From Escherichia phage vB_EcoM_G10400: DNA of 64,000 nucleotides. The DNA lies in the sequence record MK327937.1, one strand, 5' to 3'. The notes under the pieces were generated by a model that was not told the origin of the DNA, did no database searches, and was given only the letters and a program-made list of their open reading frames with translations. Shown here one piece after another: positions 20,562 through 31,072 of the stretch (position 1 is its first letter; every line of letters begins with the position of its first letter). Both the position numbers and the translations under genes were made by a program.

Positions 20562-21039
20562 AGAAGTTTCTATTCCTAAAATGGGTCTTAAACATTATAA
20601 CATTTTAAAGGATGTTAAAGGTCCTGATGAAAATTTAAAACTTCTTATTGATTCTATTTGTCCGAATTTATCACCGGCAGAAGTTGATTTCGTTTCTATT
20701 CATTTATTGGAATTTAATGGAAAGATTAAATCTCGTAAAGAAATAGATGGCTATACTTATGACATTAATGATGTCTATGTATGCCAAAGATTGGAATTTC
20801 AATACCAAGGAAATACATTTTATTTTAGACCTCCTGGAAAATTTGAACAATTTTTAACGGTGAGCGATATGTTATCTAAATGCTTGCTTAAGGTCAACGA
20901 TGAAGTTAAAGAAATTAATTTTCTTGAGATGCCAGCATTCGTTTTAAAATGGGCAAATGATATTTTTACAACTTTAGCAATTCCTGGCCCTAATGGTCCA
21001 ATAACTGGAATTGGCAATATTATTGGATTATTTGAATGA
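20506..21039 (+). CDS. 28: Baseplate hub distal subunit gp28
   Basis: 177-aa ORF overlapping end of gene 27; T4 synteny and size. Confidence 0.85.
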
Positions 21040-22808
21040 AAAAGCCACAAGAAATGCAAACGATGCGTAGAAAAGTTATTTCAGATAATAAACCAACACA
21101 GGAAGCGGCTAAATCCGCTTCCAACACTTTATCTGGACTTAATGATATATCTACGAAATTGGATGATGCTCAAGCTGCTTCTGAATTAATAGCTCAAACT
21201 GTCGAAGAAAAATCGAATGAAATAGTTGGAGCAATTGGTAACGTAGAAAGCGCAGTGAGTGATACTACTGCCGGTTCTGAGTTAATTGCCGAGACTGTTG
21301 AAATTGGCAATAATATCAATAAAGAAATAGGCGAATCACTCGGAAGTAAATTAGATAAATTAACAAGTTTACTAGAGCAAAAAATTCAGACAGCTGGAAT
21401 TCAACAGACTGGAACTAGTTTAGCCACAGTTGAAAGCGCTATTCCTGTTAAAGTCGTTGAGGATGATACTGCTGAATCTGTGGGTCCTTTATTACCGGCC
21501 CCTGAAGCAGTTAATAATGATCCTGACGCTGATTTTTTCCCTACCCCTCAGCCAGTTGAACCCAAACAAGAATCGCCAGAAGAAAAACAGAAAAAAGAAG
21601 CATTTAACTTAAAATTATCTCAAGCTTTAGATAAATTAACGAAGACTGTTGATTTTGGATTTAAAAAATCCATTTCAATTACTGATAAAATATCAAGCAT
21701 GTTATTTAAGTACACCATCAGTGCTGCTATTGAAGCTGCTAAAATGACTGCAATGATATTGGCTGTTGTTGTTGGAATAGACCTGTTGATGGTTCATTTT
21801 AAATACTGGTCAGATAAATTTTCAAAAGCCTGGGATTTATTTAATACTGACTTTACTAAATTCTCTAGCGAAACCGGAACATGGGGTCCTTTATTACAGA
21901 GCATCTTTGATTCTATTGATAAAATTAAACAACTTTGGGAAGCGGGAGATTGGGGTGGATTGACAGCAGCTATTGTTGAAGGACTCGGAAGTGTTCTTTT
22001 TAATTTAGGTGAACTTATTCAATTAGGTATGGCTAAATTATCTGCAGCAATTCTTCGAGTCATTCCTGGTATGAAGGATACTGCTGATGAAGTAGAAGGA
22101 AGAGCATTAGAAAATTTCCAAAATTCTACTGGAGCATCTCTCAATAAAGAAGACCAGGAAAAAGTTGCAAATTATCAAGATAAACGAATGAACGGAGACC
22201 TTGGTCCGATAGCAAAAGGATTAGATAAAATTGCTAATTGGAAAACTCGTGCATCTAATTGGATTCGTGGGGTTGATAATAAAGAAGCACTAACTACCGA
22301 CGAAGAACGTGCAGCAGAAGAAGAAAAATTAAAGCAACTTTCACCTGAAGAAAGAAAAAATGCTTTAATGAAGGCTAATGAAGCCCGTGCCGCAATGATT
22401 CGCTTTGAAAAATATGCTGATTCAGCTGATATGAGTAAAGACTCAACGGTTAAATCTGTTGAATCTGCCTATGAAGACCTTAAAAAACGGATGGATGACC
22501 CGGATTTAAATAATTCACCGGCAGTTAAAAAAGAACTTGCTGCTAGATTTTCTAAAATTGATGCTACTTATCAAGAGCTCAAGAAAAATCAGCCTAATGC
22601 CAAACCTGAAACTTCTGCTAAATCGCCAGAAGCAAAACAAGTCCAGGTAATAGAAAAGAACAAAGCACAGCAAGCTCCTGTTCAACAAGCATCTCCTTCA
22701 ATCAATAATACTAATAATGTTATTAAGAAAAATACTGTCGTTCATAATATGACACCTGTCACAAGCACAACTGCTCCTGGTGTATTTGATGCGACTGGGG
22801 TTAATTAA
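21036..22808 (+). CDS. 29: Baseplate hub / tail length determinator gp29
   Basis: 590-aa ORF, T4 synteny and size. Confidence 0.92.
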   Translation: MKKPQEMQTMRRKVISDNKPTQEAAKSASNTLSGLNDISTKLDDAQAASELIAQTVEEKSNEIVGAIGNVESAVSDTTAGSELIAETVEIGNNINKEIGESLGSKLDKLTSLLEQKIQTAGIQQTGTSLATVESAIPVKVVEDDTAESVGPLLPAPEAVNNDPDADFFPTPQPVEPKQESPEEKQKKEAFNLKLSQALDKLTKTVDFGFKKSISITDKISSMLFKYTISAAIEAAKMTAMILAVVVGIDLLMVHFKYWSDKFSKAWDLFNTDFTKFSSETGTWGPLLQSIFDSIDKIKQLWEAGDWGGLTAAIVEGLGSVLFNLGELIQLGMAKLSAAILRVIPGMKDTADEVEGRALENFQNSTGASLNKEDQEKVANYQDKRMNGDLGPIAKGLDKIANWKTRASNWIRGVDNKEALTTDEERAAEEEKLKQLSPEERKNALMKANEARAAMIRFEKYADSADMSKDSTVKSVESAYEDLKKRMDDPDLNNSPAVKKELAARFSKIDATYQELKKNQPNAKPETSAKSPEAKQVQVIEKNKAQQAPVQQASPSINNTNNVIKKNTVVHNMTPVTSTTAPGVFDATGVN

Positions 22809-22816
22809 GGAATAAT

Positions 22817-23911
22817 ATGGCAATTGTTAAAGAAATAACTGCTGATTTAATTAAAAAGTCCGGTGAGAAAATTTCAGCCGGACAGAGTACTAAATCAGAA
22901 GTAGGAACTAAAACATACACAGCCCAGTTTCCAACTGGGCGTGCTAGTGGTAATGACACTACAGGGGACTTCCAGGTAACAGATCTATATAAGAATGGAT
23001 TATTATTTACTGCATACAATATGTCATCTAGGGATTCTGGAAGTCTTAGATCGATGAGATCTAACTACTCTTCTTCATCTTCGAGTATTTTACGTACAGC
23101 CAGAAACACTATCAGTAATACAGTATCAAAACTGTCAAATGGATTAATATCAGATAATAATTCAGGAACAATAAGTAAAGCCCCTGTTGCAAATATTCTT
23201 TTACCAAGATCTAAATCCGATGTTGATACATCATCACATAGATTTAATGATGTTCAAGAAAGTCTTATCAGCAGAGGCGGAGGTACTGCTACTGGTGTGC
23301 TAAGTAATATTGCTTCAACTGCAGTATTTGGAGCACTGGAAAGTATAACACAAGGTATAATGGCTGATAATAATGAACAAATATACACTACGGCTCGAAG
23401 TATGTATGGTGGTGCTGAAAATAGAACTAAAGTGTTTACTTGGGATTTGACTCCACGTTCAACAGAAGATTTAATGGCTATTATTAATATCTATCAATAT
23501 TTTAACTATTTTTCTTATGGTGAAACTGGTAAATCTCAATATGCTGCTGAAATAAAGGGGTATTTAGATGATTGGTATCGTTCTACGTTAATTGAACCTT
23601 TATCTCCGGAAGACGCAGCTAAAAATAAAACACTATTTGAGAAAATGACATCGAGTTTAACTAACGTTCTAGTAGTTTCAAACCCGACAATTTGGATGGT
23701 GAAAAACTTTGGTGCAACATCTAAGTTTGATGGAAAAACGGAAATATTTGGCCCATGCCAAATACAAAGCATCAGATTTGATAAAACACCTAATGGTAAC
23801 TTTAACGGATTAGCTATTGCTCCAAACCTCCCTAGTACATTTACTCTTGAGATTACTATGAGAGAAATTATCACGTTAAACCGTGCTTCTTTATATGCGG
23901 GGACTTTTTAA
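22817..23911 (+). CDS. 48: Baseplate tail tube cap gp48
   Basis: 364-aa ORF, T4 synteny and size. Confidence 0.92.
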   Translation: MAIVKEITADLIKKSGEKISAGQSTKSEVGTKTYTAQFPTGRASGNDTTGDFQVTDLYKNGLLFTAYNMSSRDSGSLRSMRSNYSSSSSSILRTARNTISNTVSKLSNGLISDNNSGTISKAPVANILLPRSKSDVDTSSHRFNDVQESLISRGGGTATGVLSNIASTAVFGALESITQGIMADNNEQIYTTARSMYGGAENRTKVFTWDLTPRSTEDLMAIINIYQYFNYFSYGETGKSQYAAEIKGYLDDWYRSTLIEPLSPEDAAKNKTLFEKMTSSLTNVLVVSNPTIWMVKNFGATSKFDGKTEIFGPCQIQSIRFDKTPNGNFNGLAIAPNLPSTFTLEITMREIITLNRASLYAGTF

Positions 23912-24876
23912 TGTATTCTTTAGAGGAATTTAATAATCAAGCAATAAACGCAGATTTCCAACGTAATAATATGTTTAGCTGCGTTTTTGCGACAACTCCA
24001 TCAACTAAAAGCTCTTCGTTGATAAGTTCAATTAGCAACTTTTCTTATAATAACTTGGGCCTAAATTCAGATTGGTTAGGATTGACTCAAGGTGATATTA
24101 ATCAGGGAATTACCACGCTAATTACTGCTGGCACACAAAAACTGATAAGAAAATCAGGGGTTAGTAAATATCTTATTGGTGCCATGAGTCAACGTACAGT
24201 TCAAAGTTTATTAGGCTCATTTACAGTTGGTACATATTTAATTGACTTCTTTAACATGGCATATAACTCATCTGGATTGATGATATACTCTGTAAAAATG
24301 CCAGAGAATAGATTATCCTATGAAACTGACTGGAACTACAATTCTCCTAATATTCGCATAACCGGGAGAGAATTAGACCCTTTGGTTATTTCATTTAGAA
24401 TGGATTCAGAAGCTTGTAACTATCGTGCAATGCAAGACTGGGTTAACTCCGTTCAAGACCCAGTAACTGGATTACGCGCTTTGCCACAGGATGTCGAGGC
24501 AGATATTCAGGTTAATCTTCATTCTCGTAATGGATTGCCTCATACTGCGGTGATGTTCACTGGATGCATTCCAATATCAGTGAGCGCTCCTGAGTTATCA
24601 TATGATGGAGATAACCAAATAACTACATTTGACGTTACTTTTGCGTATAGAGTGATGCAGGCTGGAGCAGTTGATAGGCAAGCTGCGCTTGAATGGCTTG
24701 AATCTGCTGCTATAAATGGTATTCAAAGCGTTCTCGGAAATAGTGGAGGTGTTACTGGACTATCTAATTCGCTTTCACGACTCAGTAGATTAGGGGGAAC
24801 TGCAGGAAGCATTTCAAACATTAATACTATGACAGGAATTGTCAATTCGCAAAGTAAAATATTAGGAGCAATATAA
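23911..24876 (+). CDS. 54: Baseplate tail tube initiator gp54
   Basis: 321-aa ORF, T4 synteny and size. Confidence 0.92.
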   Translation: MYSLEEFNNQAINADFQRNNMFSCVFATTPSTKSSSLISSISNFSYNNLGLNSDWLGLTQGDINQGITTLITAGTQKLIRKSGVSKYLIGAMSQRTVQSLLGSFTVGTYLIDFFNMAYNSSGLMIYSVKMPENRLSYETDWNYNSPNIRITGRELDPLVISFRMDSEACNYRAMQDWVNSVQDPVTGLRALPQDVEADIQVNLHSRNGLPHTAVMFTGCIPISVSAPELSYDGDNQITTFDVTFAYRVMQAGAVDRQAALEWLESAAINGIQSVLGNSGGVTGLSNSLSRLSRLGGTAGSISNINTMTGIVNSQSKILGAI

Positions 24877-24880
24877 CAAT

Positions 24881-24898
24881 GGGGACCTTTCGGTCCCC
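24881..24898. terminator. Hairpin GGGGACC-UUUC-GGUCCCC between convergent gene 54 and minus-strand ORF
   Basis: 7-bp GC stem, tetraloop, followed by A/U-rich run. Confidence 0.6.
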
Positions 24899-24904
24899 AT
24901 ATTT

Positions 24905-25195
24905 TTATTTACGGAATGAAATAAAAGCAGCAACTGAAGCAACTAAACTGTCTTCAATATAAACCTCAATTTTTACCGGAGCTTCTGACTCAAATTTACC
25001 TGTTACTACACCTTGGAAAATACTTTCAGTCTGTTCTGGCTTTGAAAAATTTTCAGAAGGAAAAATTCCGAACTTTTTATCTGTTCCAAAAATTTTGATA
25101 AATTCATCGTAAACTGCTTCATTAAAAGCATTATCAGCAGGAATAACTCCTTCAACTACAAGTTCTTGACCTAAAAAGCGCAAAGAAGATTTCAT
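24905..25195 (-). CDS. Hypothetical protein
   Basis: 96-aa ORF with GAGGA SD 7 nt upstream; downstream of a sigma70-like promoter. Confidence 0.6.
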   Translation of the reverse strand: MKSSLRFLGQELVVEGVIPADNAFNEAVYDEFIKIFGTDKKFGIFPSENFSKPEQTESIFQGVVTGKFESEAPVKIEVYIEDSLVASVAAFISFRK

Positions 25196-25226: not shown

Positions 25227-25255
25227 ACTATAACACAACACGAGGGACTTGTAAA
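25227..25255 (-). promoter_or_regulatory. T4 early-type (sigma70-like) promoter: TTTACA-N17-TATAGT
   Basis: Minus-strand -35 TTTACA (25250-25255) and -10 TATAGT (25227-25232), 17-nt spacer; part of a 54-bp element repeated at 40463-40516. Confidence 0.5.
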
Positions 25256-27313
25256 CTACATTTTGAACTTTTTAGACATTCCGTTGATGTTAACCAAAGA
25301 AGCCAAGATTTGAGAAACTTCATTTTCCTCTTCTTTTGATTCTTCTACAAGGAATTGATTAAATCCAGCCATTGGACGAACTTCACCAGTTTCCATTAGA
25401 TGGTCTCCATCATATACTGATTCTTCTAATTGTTCAGAAGGAGGAACGATTGTACCTTCGATTAGATACTTGTTATAAGCAGTTTCTTTCATAAAGTACG
25501 TACTTACTTTATTAATCTTCAGTAAAATTCCACGTGGTAGAATAACTTCAGCTTCTGATGGAAATCCTGATAAATGACCTGGAACGATAACTTTGATTCG
25601 CTCAGCTCCTTTAATTATCATACCCACGCTAGTTTCTGCATCTTCATTAGCATATGTAGAATGACTACCCATATGCATCAAATCTTCTGCATCAACGGAA
25701 CCTTCTCCTTCACCAGAAAATACTGCGCCGGAATCATCTAGAGCCATATAGTTTTTACCATGCTCACCGAAGATATTTGGTTTAAGCGATGTGGATACGA
25801 AGTTCTTGAAATAGAACATTTTATTTTCAATGTTATGACGCAAAGTTTTAAAGGTAACTTCTTGCCCACGGTAAAGTGTAGTTCCTGGAGGAAGAACTGA
25901 TCCTTTGGCAAAGGCAGAATCTAACGTCTCGATGTGCTTAATAGCTCGTTCCATGTATTCTTCACGGGTAGAATCTGGTTTACCCAAAAGGAACGAGTTC
26001 ATTTCAACATATGAATCTGCACAATAATCTTCAATTACATCAGATTCAGCCTGAGTCAGTCCTTTTGGAGCTACTTCGGTGCTTGCGTATTCATATGCCT
26101 GGGCAGCAGATTCATTAATCAATTTATAAATGCCATTCATGACAAATTGAATAATAGCTGTCTTTTCATCTGGTGTGGTTTTAGAACCTTTAACTAAATC
26201 ATTAATAATTTTCTTAATAACATCAAAGCTATTAGAAATATTAATGTCAGCAAGATCGCTTAAAATTTTATCAGTTTTATAATCAAAGAATTCTTTATTC
26301 TTTAAATATTCTTGAGAACCTTGATATGTTATATCGCTCTGCAACTTGATAGATGGATCACGTAAACGTGCATGGGCCAATGCAATATGATTTCGGAAGC
26401 TTTCTAGTTCATAATCGTTAGATTTAAAACGAGAAGCACTTCTCATACCACCGATAGCTCCTTTGCTGAAGTTTGAACCAATCTGGATAACGCCAGAGTT
26501 CATCGGACCTTCTGCTTTATATACCGGAACTTTAGATTCAAACTCTTGATATTTCTTGGCAGCAAAGCTATCACCCTGAAGTGAAGCATCAACAGTAGAA
26601 TATTGAGCTTGTGCTGCTAATCGACGACTTATTTTAGTTTTCTGAATAACAGCTTGGTCCGTGCGCTTATCATTTTCTAAAGCAATAGAAGCAGCAACAG
26701 CGACAGCTTTAGGAACAGCATTTCCTGTTTTAACGTCTACATAAACATCACCGACCTTTGATTCAACTTTTGTGAATAACTCAGTTGAAATAGGAGGTAC
26801 ACCTGGAATGTCTTCTAAATTGGCATTTTTACGGTAAACCATAATATATGCATATTTCTTATCATAGTCCCAGATTTCCTTTAAAAGAACATATCGACCT
26901 GCTCCTTTAGTACGTACTAAACGGTCAGCAATAACTTGCATTTGACGAGCTGCGCCATTTGTTTTACTTTTTAGTACGCGGAATAGGCATGCGTCGATTT
27001 TATACTGTTTCATTGTTTGAAGAGCAGTATCAAAAACGGCATTAATGACACCAATTGGATTTCCACCCAAGTTTTTAAGCTTAACTAATGATAGTTTCTC
27101 ATTAACACCTATCATTACGATATGCATCATTTTATCGCCTGGCTTAACGTTTTTATTCGTATCACCACCAGAGGTGTATGTACAAAATCTAAATCCAGGA
27201 AGCACGCTTTCTTCGCCGGCTTGAATAGCAAAAATTTGTGGTATTTTATGCTTAGGATTTAAGTTAACAACCGGCGCCGAAGCGCCGTCAAATAATTCTG
27301 TAATAAGTTCCAT
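25256..27313 (-). CDS. alt: Alt-like ADP-ribosyltransferase (paralog A)
   Basis: 685-aa ORF; R-S-E type ART motifs near C-terminus (LYRGQ, FVSTSL, EAEVILPRG); N-terminal MELITELFD shared with neighbour. Confidence 0.85.
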   Translation of the reverse strand: MELITELFDGASAPVVNLNPKHKIPQIFAIQAGEESVLPGFRFCTYTSGGDTNKNVKPGDKMMHIVMIGVNEKLSLVKLKNLGGNPIGVINAVFDTALQTMKQYKIDACLFRVLKSKTNGAARQMQVIADRLVRTKGAGRYVLLKEIWDYDKKYAYIMVYRKNANLEDIPGVPPISTELFTKVESKVGDVYVDVKTGNAVPKAVAVAASIALENDKRTDQAVIQKTKISRRLAAQAQYSTVDASLQGDSFAAKKYQEFESKVPVYKAEGPMNSGVIQIGSNFSKGAIGGMRSASRFKSNDYELESFRNHIALAHARLRDPSIKLQSDITYQGSQEYLKNKEFFDYKTDKILSDLADINISNSFDVIKKIINDLVKGSKTTPDEKTAIIQFVMNGIYKLINESAAQAYEYASTEVAPKGLTQAESDVIEDYCADSYVEMNSFLLGKPDSTREEYMERAIKHIETLDSAFAKGSVLPPGTTLYRGQEVTFKTLRHNIENKMFYFKNFVSTSLKPNIFGEHGKNYMALDDSGAVFSGEGEGSVDAEDLMHMGSHSTYANEDAETSVGMIIKGAERIKVIVPGHLSGFPSEAEVILPRGILLKINKVSTYFMKETAYNKYLIEGTIVPPSEQLEESVYDGDHLMETGEVRPMAGFNQFLVEESKEEENEVSQILASLVNINGMSKKFKM

Positions 27314-27316
27314 GAT

Positions 27317-29374
27317 TTATCCTTGAACGAACTTGTAAGGCATGTTTGCAATATCTATACAAGACGCAATAATTCCAAGAGATGATTCTACTTTCTGTTT
27401 AACATTTGATGAAACAAATGATGCAAAGTCAACTCTGTCTTCTACTTCAATATCACCTGTCATTGTAACTACTTCGCCGGTTTCCATTAGACGGTCACCG
27501 TCATAAATTACCGATTCGGTGAGTTCTTCTGTGGTCATAACTTCAGCTTGAATAAGCTTGTTGTTAGTTTTAACTGTTCCATCATTGTAAGATGCATCGG
27601 TTATTTTATTAACTTTGACCATTAATCCACGTGGCAAAATGACTTCCATTTCATTTGAAGGTGCTAAACTTCCACCTGGTAAAACAACATTGACTTTATC
27701 AGCCCCAGTAATAACCCATCCAATTCCAACTAAATTATCGCTAGAATTTACTAGTCCTTCATCAGTTTTATCAATAGAAACACTTAAACGCTTTTCGTCT
27801 GGTAAAACACCCACAGATGAATCAGTCATCCAGGTACCAAAAATATTTGGATATAATGATGTTGACACAAAGTTTCTAAAATAAAAAACTCGATTTTTTA
27901 CCATTGCTTCATATATTGAAGGTAACATTCGTTGTGAACGATACAAAGTAATACCTTTTGGTAATCGTTCACCATTTTTAAAGGCTGAATCTAAATTATC
28001 AATAGCTTTTTCTATGTCAGATGCTGTCAAAATACTTGTACGCTCATCTGGATTATATAATCCCAAAAGAGCATTATTTATATCTACATATCCTGAACCT
28101 ACGTATTCACGAATTCCGCGTTTTTGCGCCGGTGTGTATTTAGATGAATCTTTATTTTCGACTATAGGATGTAATGACCATCCAGCGGTAAGAGCATATC
28201 CACGTAATTCTCTTCGAATAATCTTTGTTTTTATTGCATTCCAAGAATTTTGTACTAACTCATTTGCAGCATCTTGGTTTAAATGCGAATGTTTGTTAAT
28301 ATTTCTTTCAAACCAAGCACCTTTATATTTTTCTAAGGTATCATCGACGATAGAAGCAATAGTTTCTAAAGTTTTTATTGAAGTAATAGATTCTTTTTTT
28401 AATTTTTCTAAAGCTTTATTTTTTATTTCTGCATTAATAATGGATTCTTTATCTTCAGGAATTATAGAAGCTTCTCTGAATGCCATCCCAGCTGTAACAC
28501 TGCTAAGAGCATTCTCTAGTGCAAATCCTGAAGTAGAAATTACCGTTAATTCATTAGAATCAGAAATTAAAGGCGCGTCCGCTGGTTTATTTAATTCTGC
28601 CGCTGAAGCCTCAAATTTTTGAAACATCGGTGTTTCAAATCTAGAAGATTCCAATGACTGACTTTGTGCAATTGCTCTACGGGAAATTTTAACTTTAACG
28701 ATTACAGCTTGGTCAGAACGTTTATCATTTTCTTGTGCAATAGATGCTGCAATTGCCTCATTTTTAGTTACTTGAGCTCCAGTATCTTTATTGATATAAA
28801 CATCACCGACCTTCGATTCAACTTTAGTAAAGAGCTCGGTACTAATTTCTGGAACTCCTGGAATGTCTTCTAGTGATACATTTTTGCGATGTATAAGAAT
28901 ATATGCATACTTTTTATCATAATCCCAGAGTTCCTTAAGAAGGACGTATCTGCCACCTGAACGACTACGGATAAGTCTATCAGCAATAACTTGAATTTGT
29001 CGAGCTTGACCAGCGGTTTTAGACTTAAGAATACGAAGCATACAGGCATCAATTTTATACTGACGCATTGTTTGCATCGCAACAGTAAAAACTGAATTGA
29101 TATAATTAATTGGGCTTGGACCAAGACCTTTTAATTTAGCAATTGAACCTTTAGCAGTTAATGTAAAAGGAACAATATGCATCATTTTATCGCCCATCTT
29201 TAAATCGCGATTAGTATCACCTCCAGATGTATAGGTACATAAACGAAAGCCTGGTTGTTCAATTGCATCATCAACATGAACTGAAAAAATTTGCGGTATT
29301 TTCTTCTTTGGATTTAAGTTTGTAATCGGAAGAGTAGTATCTTCGTCAAATAATTCTGTAATAAGTTCCATCAT
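27317..29374 (-). CDS. alt: Alt-like ADP-ribosyltransferase (paralog B)
   Basis: 685-aa ORF; ART motifs (LYRSQ, FVSTSL, EMEVILPRG); first 9 codons identical at nucleotide level to paralog A. Confidence 0.85.
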   Translation of the reverse strand: MMELITELFDEDTTLPITNLNPKKKIPQIFSVHVDDAIEQPGFRLCTYTSGGDTNRDLKMGDKMMHIVPFTLTAKGSIAKLKGLGPSPINYINSVFTVAMQTMRQYKIDACMLRILKSKTAGQARQIQVIADRLIRSRSGGRYVLLKELWDYDKKYAYILIHRKNVSLEDIPGVPEISTELFTKVESKVGDVYINKDTGAQVTKNEAIAASIAQENDKRSDQAVIVKVKISRRAIAQSQSLESSRFETPMFQKFEASAAELNKPADAPLISDSNELTVISTSGFALENALSSVTAGMAFREASIIPEDKESIINAEIKNKALEKLKKESITSIKTLETIASIVDDTLEKYKGAWFERNINKHSHLNQDAANELVQNSWNAIKTKIIRRELRGYALTAGWSLHPIVENKDSSKYTPAQKRGIREYVGSGYVDINNALLGLYNPDERTSILTASDIEKAIDNLDSAFKNGERLPKGITLYRSQRMLPSIYEAMVKNRVFYFRNFVSTSLYPNIFGTWMTDSSVGVLPDEKRLSVSIDKTDEGLVNSSDNLVGIGWVITGADKVNVVLPGGSLAPSNEMEVILPRGLMVKVNKITDASYNDGTVKTNNKLIQAEVMTTEELTESVIYDGDRLMETGEVVTMTGDIEVEDRVDFASFVSSNVKQKVESSLGIIASCIDIANMPYKFVQG

Positions 29375-29394
29375 AGCCTCTCTAGTGTTTATTC

Positions 29395-29402
29395 TATTTA
29401 TA
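29395..29402 (-). promoter_or_regulatory. Late promoter TATAAATA (minus strand) upstream of Alt-like paralog B
   Basis: Exact octamer on minus strand about 20 nt upstream of ATG at 29374; consistent with Alt being a late, head-packaged protein. Confidence 0.5.
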
Positions 29403-29423
29403 AAATTAAAGGCCCGAAGGCCT

Positions 29424-29612
29424 TTAATAATCTAGTGGTAAGAGAGTACGGTATATTTCAAACTTTGGACCTTTTTCATAGGCATCAAATGTTTCTGTGA
29501 ATTTATTATAAGCATATGCATCTACAAATTCGAGAATGACTTGTGATACAGAAGTAGAAACATCTCCACCTTCTTTTTGAGCAATGACAATTGTTTCTAA
29601 GTAAGCTTTCAT
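29424..29612 (-). CDS. Hypothetical protein
   Basis: 62-aa ORF overlapping stop/start with DNA ligase gene. Confidence 0.55.
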   Translation of the reverse strand: MKAYLETIVIAQKEGGDVSTSVSQVILEFVDAYAYNKFTETFDAYEKGPKFEIYRTLLPLDY

Positions 29613-31072
29613 AAACCAGTTACCTCATGAAAATCACCAAATACATCCTCGAATGTATTAGCTTTAGTTTTATCTTCACGCAAACGAATCGCAATCGGAA
29701 GAAATAATTTAACGTAATCAGTGCGGCCATCAGATTTTAACCAACCGTTGCATTCGCACTCTAGAATTTTTCCAATATAATAATTTTGGTTTTCCATAAT
29801 GCGAGTACGGTCAAGTTCATGCGATTTTACACCGGCTTTATCTTTTAAGCCTGAACCAGCATTTACTTTAATTTTTCCACACTCTGACTCAAGAATAAAT
29901 CCACCTGCTTTAGTAGGGTCTTTACGGTGAGGATAAATTCCTACAATTTTTAAATCAACATCAATTACTTCTTTAAATTTATAGAGATTTTTTGAACGAG
30001 CATTTTCCCATAATCCATCGATATTTTTGAGAATAATACCTTCAAGACCTTGGTCAATATACTTTTTATAAATTATCTTGGCTTCGTCTAGGTTATTTAC
30101 TACCTGGTTTTCAATTAAAATTACTTTATCATAGCCTGATGTCATTTGTTCTAGTTTAGAAAAACGTACATCATATTTCAAACGAAATGCAGGAAGACCG
30201 TATATTTCTACCAACGGTACATAATCCCAGACCTGAAACTTCATGCATTGTGCTTCTTTTTCAGAAATGGTTCCCTTTAAAGATTTATTGGCGATGCCAT
30301 TAGATGCAGTACGTGATTCAGCTACTTCGGCGAATTCTTTAGCTTTACTGTTTTCAGGATAAGCATCAAAAAGAAAATCTAGGCCTTCTGGCTCCTTTTT
30401 AACTTGCTCATGATATACCAATTCGCCATCAATTAACACGCCTTCTGGATGAATCTGGCGGGCTTCAGCGGTCATTTTGATTAATTCTTCCTTAAGAAGA
30501 TCTAATCCTAGATATTCATTACCAGCTCGTGATAAAAGACGAACGTCATCTAATTCATCACCTCTGACTTCGGCAAAGCACCGAGCTCCATCAGCTTTTA
30601 ACTGGGCAAAGGCTGGAAATTTGATATTCTTATTAATGCCTTTTTCATCATAAGAACTTGCAAGCATTTGAGGTTGTTCAGGAATTAAACCTGGCCAAAC
30701 TTTGTTCGCAATAGATACTGAAGCGCCACATTCAAGGTCTCGCATCATCACTCGACGCAAAACTTCAACATCATCTTTTTTACCGTCAGTAATATAACCT
30801 ACTAATTCCTCAATTGCCGCATTTCCGGTCAATTTTCGAGTAGCTAATGTAAATTCAATGAAGTCAAGCATATCAGTAATAGTCAGCATTCCAAAACTCT
30901 GGGTAGCAATACCAGGTTTAGGCCATTTCTTGATATAATACTGTAACCCACGAGAATAAGTCAGACGATATACTCGTTTAAGCAATTCATTATCTTTATT
31001 CTTTTCAAGAATTGCTTGCTTCTGCTTAGTTGAACCAATAGATGCTATTTCGTTCAGAATTTTAAGAATCAT
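29609..31072 (-). CDS. 30: ATP-dependent DNA ligase
   Basis: 487-aa ORF; sequence recalled as T4 DNA ligase, with adenylation motif region (AQLKADGAR). Confidence 0.95.
   Translation of the reverse strand: MILKILNEIASIGSTKQKQAILEKNKDNELLKRVYRLTYSRGLQYYIKKWPKPGIATQSFGMLTITDMLDFIEFTLATRKLTGNAAIEELVGYITDGKKDDVEVLRRVMMRDLECGASVSIANKVWPGLIPEQPQMLASSYDEKGINKNIKFPAFAQLKADGARCFAEVRGDELDDVRLLSRAGNEYLGLDLLKEELIKMTAEARQIHPEGVLIDGELVYHEQVKKEPEGLDFLFDAYPENSKAKEFAEVAESRTASNGIANKSLKGTISEKEAQCMKFQVWDYVPLVEIYGLPAFRLKYDVRFSKLEQMTSGYDKVILIENQVVNNLDEAKIIYKKYIDQGLEGIILKNIDGLWENARSKNLYKFKEVIDVDLKIVGIYPHRKDPTKAGGFILESECGKIKVNAGSGLKDKAGVKSHELDRTRIMENQNYYIGKILECECNGWLKSDGRTDYVKLFLPIAIRLREDKTKANTFEDVFGDFHEVTGL

Follow-up and report, generated by a model that had tools for sequence, protein, structure and literature searches.

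A T4-like phage with an intact two-gene alt locus encodes a second full-length Alt-like ADP-ribosyltransferase whose gene is decayed in T4

Alt is the textbook case of a phage enzyme that is injected with the DNA for host takeover, and knowledge of it comes nearly all from T4. We analyzed the alt locus in a 64,000-nucleotide stretch of the genome of Escherichia phage vB_EcoM_G10400 (MK327937.1; hereafter the window, at its full length), in which two adjacent genes on the minus strand each encode a full-length Alt-like ADP-ribosyltransferase (ART). For the present analysis, the upstream gene was labeled altA (27317..29371) and the downstream gene altB (25256..27313; 685 aa, 'B' lineage). As in T4, altA begins with ATGATG; it encodes 684 aa from the second ATG (29371), which the T4 annotation takes as the start (MELITE), and 685 aa if read from 29374. 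Its stop codon (27317..27319) is separated from the altB ATG by a gap of 3 nt. The pair is flanked on one side by the gene-29/48/54 baseplate block (21036..24876, plus strand) and on the other by the DNA ligase gene 30 (29609..31072), and the T4 gene order is kept, the alt locus lying between gene 30/alt.1 and alt.-3/gene 54. The source of the window is a Tequatrovirus (T4-like phage) that retains a complete two-gene alt locus.

Pairwise alignment showed that AltA is 99% identical to T4 Alt (NP_049811), and BLASTP aligned AltA with AltB at 41% identity over 719 columns. The E value of this match (1e-157) places the similarity between the two proteins far above chance. The identity was distributed unevenly: it is 68% over N-terminal residues 1-238, falls to 12% in the centre, and is 35% across the ART domain and 46% in the C-terminal tail. 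On these comparisons, orthology to T4 alt itself holds for AltA only.

The catalytic domains were assigned by matches to the Pfam family PF03496 (ADPrib_exo_Tox), which scored 123.4 bits for AltA (27530..28252, minus strand) and 72.3 bits for AltB (25454..26077, minus strand) against a cut-off of 23.4 bits. The R-S-E signature of AltA comprises R478 (LYR, 476-478), S503-T-S505 and E574-x-E576 (EMEVILPRG from 574), and that of AltB comprises R482 (LYR, 480-482), S507-T-S509 and E587-x-E589 (EAEVILPRG from 587). Two adjacent 685-aa open reading frames (ORFs) with this signature were what an original prediction, made from the DNA letters of the window, had described, and all of its motifs were found; neither paralog lacks a catalytic residue on alignment. 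In a family profile search, the YR and ExE motifs aligned with their YR and QxE/ExE counterparts in 4xsg, a C3-like transferase, and in BECa (5h03); the profile was needed for this alignment, as a single-sequence search of PDB sequences with AltB gave no match. An AF2 model of AltB (mean pLDDT 71) shows the ART fold, and its fold matches were Vis, Certhrax, CDTa, C3, VIP2 and iota toxin (E = 3e-7 to 1e-4; target-normalised TM about 0.6). By Pfam match, motifs and, for AltB, predicted fold, both proteins can be classified as putative C2/C3/VIP2-type R-S-E ARTs. Within the R-S-E ART family, E-x-E instead of Q-x-E predicts arginine specificity, and the E-x-E of AltB accordingly predicts NAD-dependent arginine ADP-ribosylation.

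The N-terminal modules (codons 1-238; altA 28658..29371 and altB 26600..27313, both on the minus strand) are the part in which the paralogs are most alike, as had been predicted. The two genes open with the same 28 coding nucleotides, ATGGAACTTATTACAGAATTATTTGACG, provided that altA is taken to start at its second ATG (altA 29344..29371, altB 27286..27313, minus strand); the identity starts exactly at the ATG, is absent upstream of it, and covers the codons for MELITELFD, including a 6-residue propeptide. Residues 7-238 are basic in both proteins (pI about 9.5-9.6), and the ART domain and C-terminal propeptide are acidic in both. Our local Pfam copy returned PF03496 as the sole family for AltA and AltB and no family match for the N-terminal module; precomputed matches to PF26846 (Tevenvirinae_ADPRT) together with PF03496 are available for P0001, a protein 99% identical to AltB, and for AltA-type homologs. 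These homolog matches, combined with the alignment, indicate that a Tevenvirinae_ADPRT module followed by an ART domain is the probable layout of both proteins.

Both proteins also carry the (L/I)-x-E motif of the gp21 prohead protease near each end. At the N-terminus, I-T-E occupies codons 4-6 of altA (29354..29362, minus strand), with an identical motif in altB at 27296..27304. At the C-terminus, L-T-E in AltA (codons 617-619; 27515..27523, minus strand) lies at the site that gp21 cleaves in T4 Alt, and it is aligned with L-E-E in AltB (codons 629-631; 25421..25429, minus strand), a predicted gp21 site. The motif is conserved at this C-terminal column in 10/10 aligned Alt proteins, drawn from five genera given as Tequatrovirus, Mosigvirus, Dhakavirus, Jiaodavirus and Salmonella phage SG1; the Alts of RB49, Riv-10 and LC53 were added for the trees only. 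Mass spectrometry of T4 Alt found that gp21 removes 6 N-terminal residues (ITE-6) and 63 C-terminal residues (LTE-619), leaving a mature protein of 68.2 kDa (PMC5694885; PMC9026906). The predicted mature AltA (residues 7-619; 68.1 kDa) agrees with this published mass, and the predicted mature AltB would comprise residues 7-631 (69.2 kDa). The C-terminal propeptides (25256-25420 in AltB and 27317-27514 in AltA) carry YDGDxLME(T/Q)G(E/K), which is likewise present in 10/10 aligned Alts, and the proteins end in KF(V/I)QG in the A lineage, KFKM in the B lineage and KLA in the Jiaodavirus Alt. The propeptide motif could act as a tether, an inhibitor or a targeting signal.

A T4-type late promoter motif, TATAAATA, lies at 29395..29402 (minus strand), some 23 nt ahead of the start of altA and in the same arrangement as in T4; a late promoter motif before the upstream paralog had been part of the original prediction. 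Just upstream of it, at the end of alt.1, a GC-rich hairpin, aaaggccttcgggccttt, followed by aatttt (29408..29425, minus strand), was read by eye and is identical in T4. This hairpin is terminator-like and may isolate the late alt transcription unit from upstream genes; a consensus scan did not list it. Shine-Dalgarno-like sequences precede both genes: GAGAGG (29377..29382, minus strand), whose spacing favors the second ATG of altA (29371), and AAGGA (27320..27324, minus strand), which lies within the last altA codons and would serve altB. We found no TATAAATA directly before altB, so that co-transcription of the two genes was inferred. A second exact TATAAATA occurs inside altA (28075..28082, minus strand), about 760 nt upstream of the altB start, and might be either a chance match or a late promoter feeding altB. 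Over the window, TATAAATA is found 21 times where 8.95 would be expected, and 0/100 shuffles reached that count; the excess is consistent with dense T4-type late promoters in a structural-gene region.

Comparison with T4 gave the downstream gene its identity. The DNA of T4 alt.-1 and alt.-2 (NP_049810, NP_049809) is near-identical to altB over codons 1-113, the last 6 codons and the downstream spacer. The T4 altB differs by a -1 frameshift and by a 1,699-nt deletion between two 9-nt CTAAAAAGT direct repeats. The frameshift corresponds to a run of five A residues at altB codons ~54-55 (27150..27154, minus strand), one of which is lost in T4, splitting alt.-1 from alt.-2. The upstream copy of CTAAAAAGT, at altB codon 114 (26966..26974, minus strand), marks the left end of the deletion, and the downstream copy, at codon 680 (25267..25275, minus strand), its right end. 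T4 thus carries a frameshifted and microhomology-deleted form of a full-length paralog, altB. The note in the T4 record itself describes alt.-1/alt.-2 as an old duplication of the first part of alt; we rejected a partial duplication of T4's own alt, as the DNA matches altB and not T4 alt. The suggestion that the short T4 ORFs alt.-1 to alt.-3 are remnants therefore held for alt.-1 and alt.-2, which are decayed altB, and failed for alt.-3, an intact and unrelated DUF5498 gene (here 24905..25195). T4 does not have two intact alt genes, altB being broken there. AltB is not orthologous to T4 alt; its orthologs are T4 alt.-1/alt.-2 and the downstream gene of Dhakavirus.

A laboratory artefact was also considered as the origin of the T4 remnant and rejected, as the T4-type deletion junction is found intact in 91 records that include many independent isolates, with either AltA allele (e.g. 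SG1). A separate loss of altB, by a different deletion, was found in Escherichia phage sutha (PV245934; L015:4501-6704). Here the deletion runs from AAGTTCGTTCAA in the last altA codons to AAGTTCGTCCAA near altB codon 648, and what is left of altB is a tail ORF of 38 codons that carries an Alt-like annotation.

The altB segment missing from T4 was found, with 94-99% of nucleotides identical, in 401 of ~530 Tequatrovirus records, among them T2, T6, RB51 and AR1. The whole 4.9-kb locus was matched at a coverage of at least 80% in 139 records, and SHFML-11 is 97.9% identical to the window across the locus. Many of the matching records annotate "Alt-like RNA polymerase ADP-ribosyltransferase (x2)". 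Alt paralogs in 44RR and RB49, as well as T4 alt.-1/alt.-2, were noted by Nolan 2006 (PMC1524935), alt duplications in JS98, Bp7 and Ac42 by Jin 2014 (PMC4177764), and two Alt-like paralogs with 43% identity in 6phi13 and SHFML-11 by a 2026 paper (PMC13600099). The intact pair is therefore the usual, annotated and published state of most T-even phages and was already known; given these three papers, the T4 record note and the two-gene annotations in hundreds of records, the novelty implied by the original prediction does not stand, and as a genome-scan finding the pair is ordinary.

Between the window and T2, altB has a dS of 0.15, a dN of 0.0056 and a dN/dS of 0.037 over its whole length, which indicates a working gene under strong purifying selection. 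The gene is also more uniform than altA, which has at least two alleles. AltA is dimorphic within Tequatrovirus: in a comparison of window positions 27317-28657 with T2 (L003:5562-6940) and SG1 (L008), the T4-type and T2-type proteins were 36% identical in the central region and 63% in the ART domain, with N-terminal modules 99-100% identical. The T2-type AltA is closer to the upstream Dhakavirus Alt (66% central, 82% ART). A T4-type AltA extends over the full length in only 174 of 521 records.

Phylogenetic trees were compared between the N-terminal module and the remainder of the protein. In the tree of residues 239-685, the Tequatrovirus AltB grouped with the downstream Dhakavirus Alt (100% bootstrap) and then with the single Jiaodavirus Alt (96%), and AltA grouped with the upstream Dhakavirus Alt, Winklervirus and Mosigvirus (97%). 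In the tree of residues 1-238, the Tequatrovirus AltA and AltB were sisters (100%), with all other genera outside. The two trees are thus strongly discordant for Tequatrovirus. The tree of the catalytic two-thirds shows that the A and B heads are old lineages predating the Tequatrovirus/Dhakavirus split, and in this respect the idea that the phage retains an ancestral pair was borne out. The Tequatrovirus N-terminal modules share a later ancestor, through within-genome conversion or module exchange long ago.

Further information on the module came from natural hybrids. Four database homologs of AltB, from metagenomic phages (P0003-P0006), have an AltA-like N-terminus and are AltB-like thereafter, and the same kind of hybrid is present in two cultured isolates, Yersinia phage PST (L013:1802-3862) and Escherichia phage ECML-134 (L014:1802-3862). 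Two of the four metagenomic hybrids are placed on contigs (L011:5001-7061 and L012:5001-7061); each hybrid gene is a single in-frame altA(N)::altB(C) fusion. The neighboring genes were read for 4 of the 6 hybrids (the loci of P0004 and P0005 being left out); at these loci a single alt gene between alt.1 and alt.-3 replaces the pair, and 4/4 are deletion fusions. Informative sites placed six clean single crossovers, at codons 51-55, 100-103, ~104-111, 155-159, ~192 and 220-224, all inside the N-terminal module, the altB copy of which thus serves as a recombination substrate with altA. All six hybrids keep the altA promoter and 5' part, followed by the central and catalytic part of altB, and have lost the catalytic half of AltA. 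Assembly artefacts are an unlikely source of the hybrids, considering that the shared exact runs are at most 28 bases (shorter than the assembler k), that two come from cultured isolates, and that the six breakpoints differ. It follows that the paralogs recombine in the shared module, that the modules are functionally interchangeable and that either head can be lost; the hybrids further indicate that an AltB head works behind the altA promoter and N-terminus. Homologous recombination continues to take place in this module, and the locus is unstable as a result.

The crossovers also bear on the proposal, made in the original prediction, that frequent and ongoing gene conversion between the copies upholds their N-terminal similarity. 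In its favor, the N-terminal modules group by genus, natural crossovers fall inside the module, and the identity of the first 28 nt has a local P of ~0.003-0.008. We did not accept this identity as proof of conversion, since a gene-wide run test gave P ~0.10; beyond the start, the longest exact run common to the paralogs measures 20 nt. As the 28-nt identity begins at the ATG and spans the propeptide, selection acting on the 5' coding sequence is an equally good explanation. Recent conversion over the N-terminal domain was rejected on synonymous sites, which are at saturation: four-fold sites in codons 10-238 are identical at a frequency of 0.43, against 0.36 expected from composition, the remaining codons are just as saturated (0.42 against 0.38), and the same codon is used by both paralogs at 0.57 against 0.49 expected. 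Moreover, the readable hybrids are all deletion fusions and no converted pair was seen, and purifying selection at the protein level on a shared packaging module explains the 68% identity. Ongoing conversion is for these reasons highly improbable. The saturation of four-fold sites in codons 10-238, as elsewhere in the gene, indicates that any homogenization or exchange of the module is old. What remains of the proposal is that the two modules are sisters and that hybrids recombine there.

Taken together, we consider that AltB is probably a second injected, arginine-specific ADP-ribosyltransferase with substrates different from those of AltA, encoded in an intact two-gene locus whose A and B lineages are old; we give this reading a probability of roughly 70%. 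The two genes would form one late transcription unit, running from TATAAATA through altA and the 3-nt gap with the altB ribosome-binding site to altB. Each product would consist of the MELITE propeptide, the basic shared module of about 230 residues, a helical centre unrelated between the two, the ART domain and an acidic C-terminal propeptide behind (L/I)-x-E. By analogy with T4 Alt, AltA and AltB would be incorporated into the prohead core, cut by gp21 at either end and injected together with the DNA, so as to ADP-ribosylate host proteins in the first moments of infection. AltA would be the classical Alt, modifying RNA polymerase alpha among other targets; the T4 enzyme ADP-ribosylates Arg265 of this subunit (PMC2988021, PMC9958956). 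A different substrate set for AltB is most likely because its central region and ART domain are so divergent (12% and 35% identity).

Two other accounts of AltB were weighed against this reading. The first is that AltB acts in the producing cell, or structurally in the head core, and is not injected, its ART activity being possibly irrelevant or lost. Packaging of AltB lacks direct evidence, and the loop between S-T-S and E-x-E is long and poorly modeled, both of which would suit such a role. However, AltB has an identical MELITE propeptide and has I-T-E and L-E-E at the positions that are cleaved in T4 Alt (PMC5694885), its catalytic residues are all intact under a gene-wide dN/dS of 0.037, and viable hybrid isolates carry the AltB head on AltA's own delivery module, which together make a non-injected AltB quite improbable. 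The second is that AltB is a redundant back-up, packaged and injected in the same way and acting on AltA's main targets, Arg265 of RNA polymerase alpha among them, so that it contributes dose and not specificity. The N-terminal module, propeptide motifs and catalytic triad are the same in both proteins, and either head has been lost naturally, AltB by the T4-type deletion and the AltA head in the hybrids, as redundancy would allow. Yet the divergence of the central region and ART domain is large, the two head lineages, A and B, have stayed distinct across genera, and AltB is strongly purified in ~400 genomes, a long joint preservation that is unexpected under pure redundancy. We therefore regard simple redundancy as unlikely.

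Several points weigh against AltB as a second injected enzyme with its own substrates. The gene is dispensable in nature, T4-type and sutha-type losses together accounting for ~18% of records, and the dispensability of both AltB and AltA heads is also compatible with partial redundancy instead of distinct targets. The quality of the AltB model is moderate, with the variable loop 517-555 and the C-terminal propeptide unmodeled. Expression of altB would rely on read-through from altA, in keeping with the missing promoter motif, and the tree discordance could come from module exchange between phages instead of within-genome conversion. Our literature searches found no experiments on the second Alt and no virion proteomics of pair-bearing Tequatroviruses; for AltB, expression, packaging, cleavage, injection, activity and substrates rest on the analogy with T4 Alt.

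The window locus was further compared with known systems. AltA shares with T4 Alt its position in the locus, late promoter, hairpin and ATGATG start. AltB resembles T4 Alt in its architecture, propeptide, pair of gp21 motifs and catalytic triad, but overall identity is only 41%, and AltB is of a different lineage, which ends in KFKM where T4 Alt has KFVQG; T4 alt.-1/alt.-2, by comparison, is the same gene as altB, broken in T4 and intact here. Two adjacent full-length alt-like genes occupy the same locus in JS98/Dhakavirus, Bp7, Ac42, 44RR and Riv-10 (PMC4177764, PMC1524935) and in 6phi13/SHFML-11 (PMC13600099). In Dhakavirus, the upstream and downstream Alts are orthologous to AltA and AltB in the catalytic two-thirds, and their N-terminal modules, unlike those of Tequatrovirus, are not sisters, the upstream one pairing with Mosigvirus. 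The two Alts of Aeromonas phage Riv-10 form a group in either tree, with support of 100% (N-terminal module) and 77% (C-terminal two-thirds); they show no discordance, and the pair looks like a separate duplication. The adjacent R-S-E ART paralogs ModA and ModB of T4, whose targets have diverged, offer a precedent for target specialization after duplication (PMC10468400); unlike Alt, they are small, early and unpackaged and are without the Alt N-terminal module and propeptides.

Further features were noted around the locus. The alt.1 homolog (29424-29612, minus strand; 62 aa) has a match (E = 2e-29) to PF24647 'Phage blade protein', a recent addition to Pfam. It overlaps the stop codon of the ligase gene, and its end lies in the hairpin ahead of the alt late promoter. 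On the plus strand, a 202-aa ORF (28014-28622) is antisense to altA and is probably a by-product of altA codon composition. Right after the altB stop and before the alt.-3 homolog, a sigma-70/T4-early-like promoter (25227-25255, minus strand) consists of TTTACA, a 17-nt spacer, TG and TATAGT and is conserved in T4; with it, alt.-3 (DUF5498) would be an early gene beside a late unit. Between the convergent gene 54 and alt.-3 lies a hairpin with a perfect 9-bp stem, ATGGGGACC...GGTCCCCAT (24879-24900), whose loop differs from that of T4. Its plus-strand tail, ATTTTTATTT, is T-rich, so that the hairpin fits a gene 54 terminator; the minus-strand tail, TGTTATATTG, is weakly T-rich, and termination of alt.-3 at this hairpin is less clear.

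The nearest parallel in the locus as a whole is with the T-even internal proteins (Ip1, Ip2, Ip3 and others), which are polymorphic and injected and combine a constant N-terminal targeting and cleavage signal with a variable functional part. The known Ips each block a single host-defence variant (PMC12373910). The alt locus resembles them in its constant delivery part, its variable head and its presence/absence polymorphism, and differs from them in scale and activity, Ips being small non-enzymatic inhibitors with a 10-residue targeting sequence and Alts having a 230-residue module and an enzyme. To our knowledge, Alt proteins have no known defence target. With these parallels in mind, we tentatively propose, at somewhat less than even confidence, that AltB has substrates of its own, possibly in a host defence or stress system instead of RNA polymerase, that it was overlooked since the T4 copy is deleted, and that the shared module is both a delivery cassette and a recombination hot spot. 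If this is true, T-even phages could keep, drop or swap heads (T4-type AltA, T2-type AltA and AltB), as they do internal proteins.

An intact, strongly conserved AltB is encoded by roughly three quarters of the T-even phages sequenced so far, T2 and T6 among them. The alt locus offers a clear natural example of a constant delivery module that favors the loss or fusion of the variable enzyme heads. Should AltB act on substrates of its own, more host modification would take place in the opening seconds of a T-even infection than the T4 model describes.

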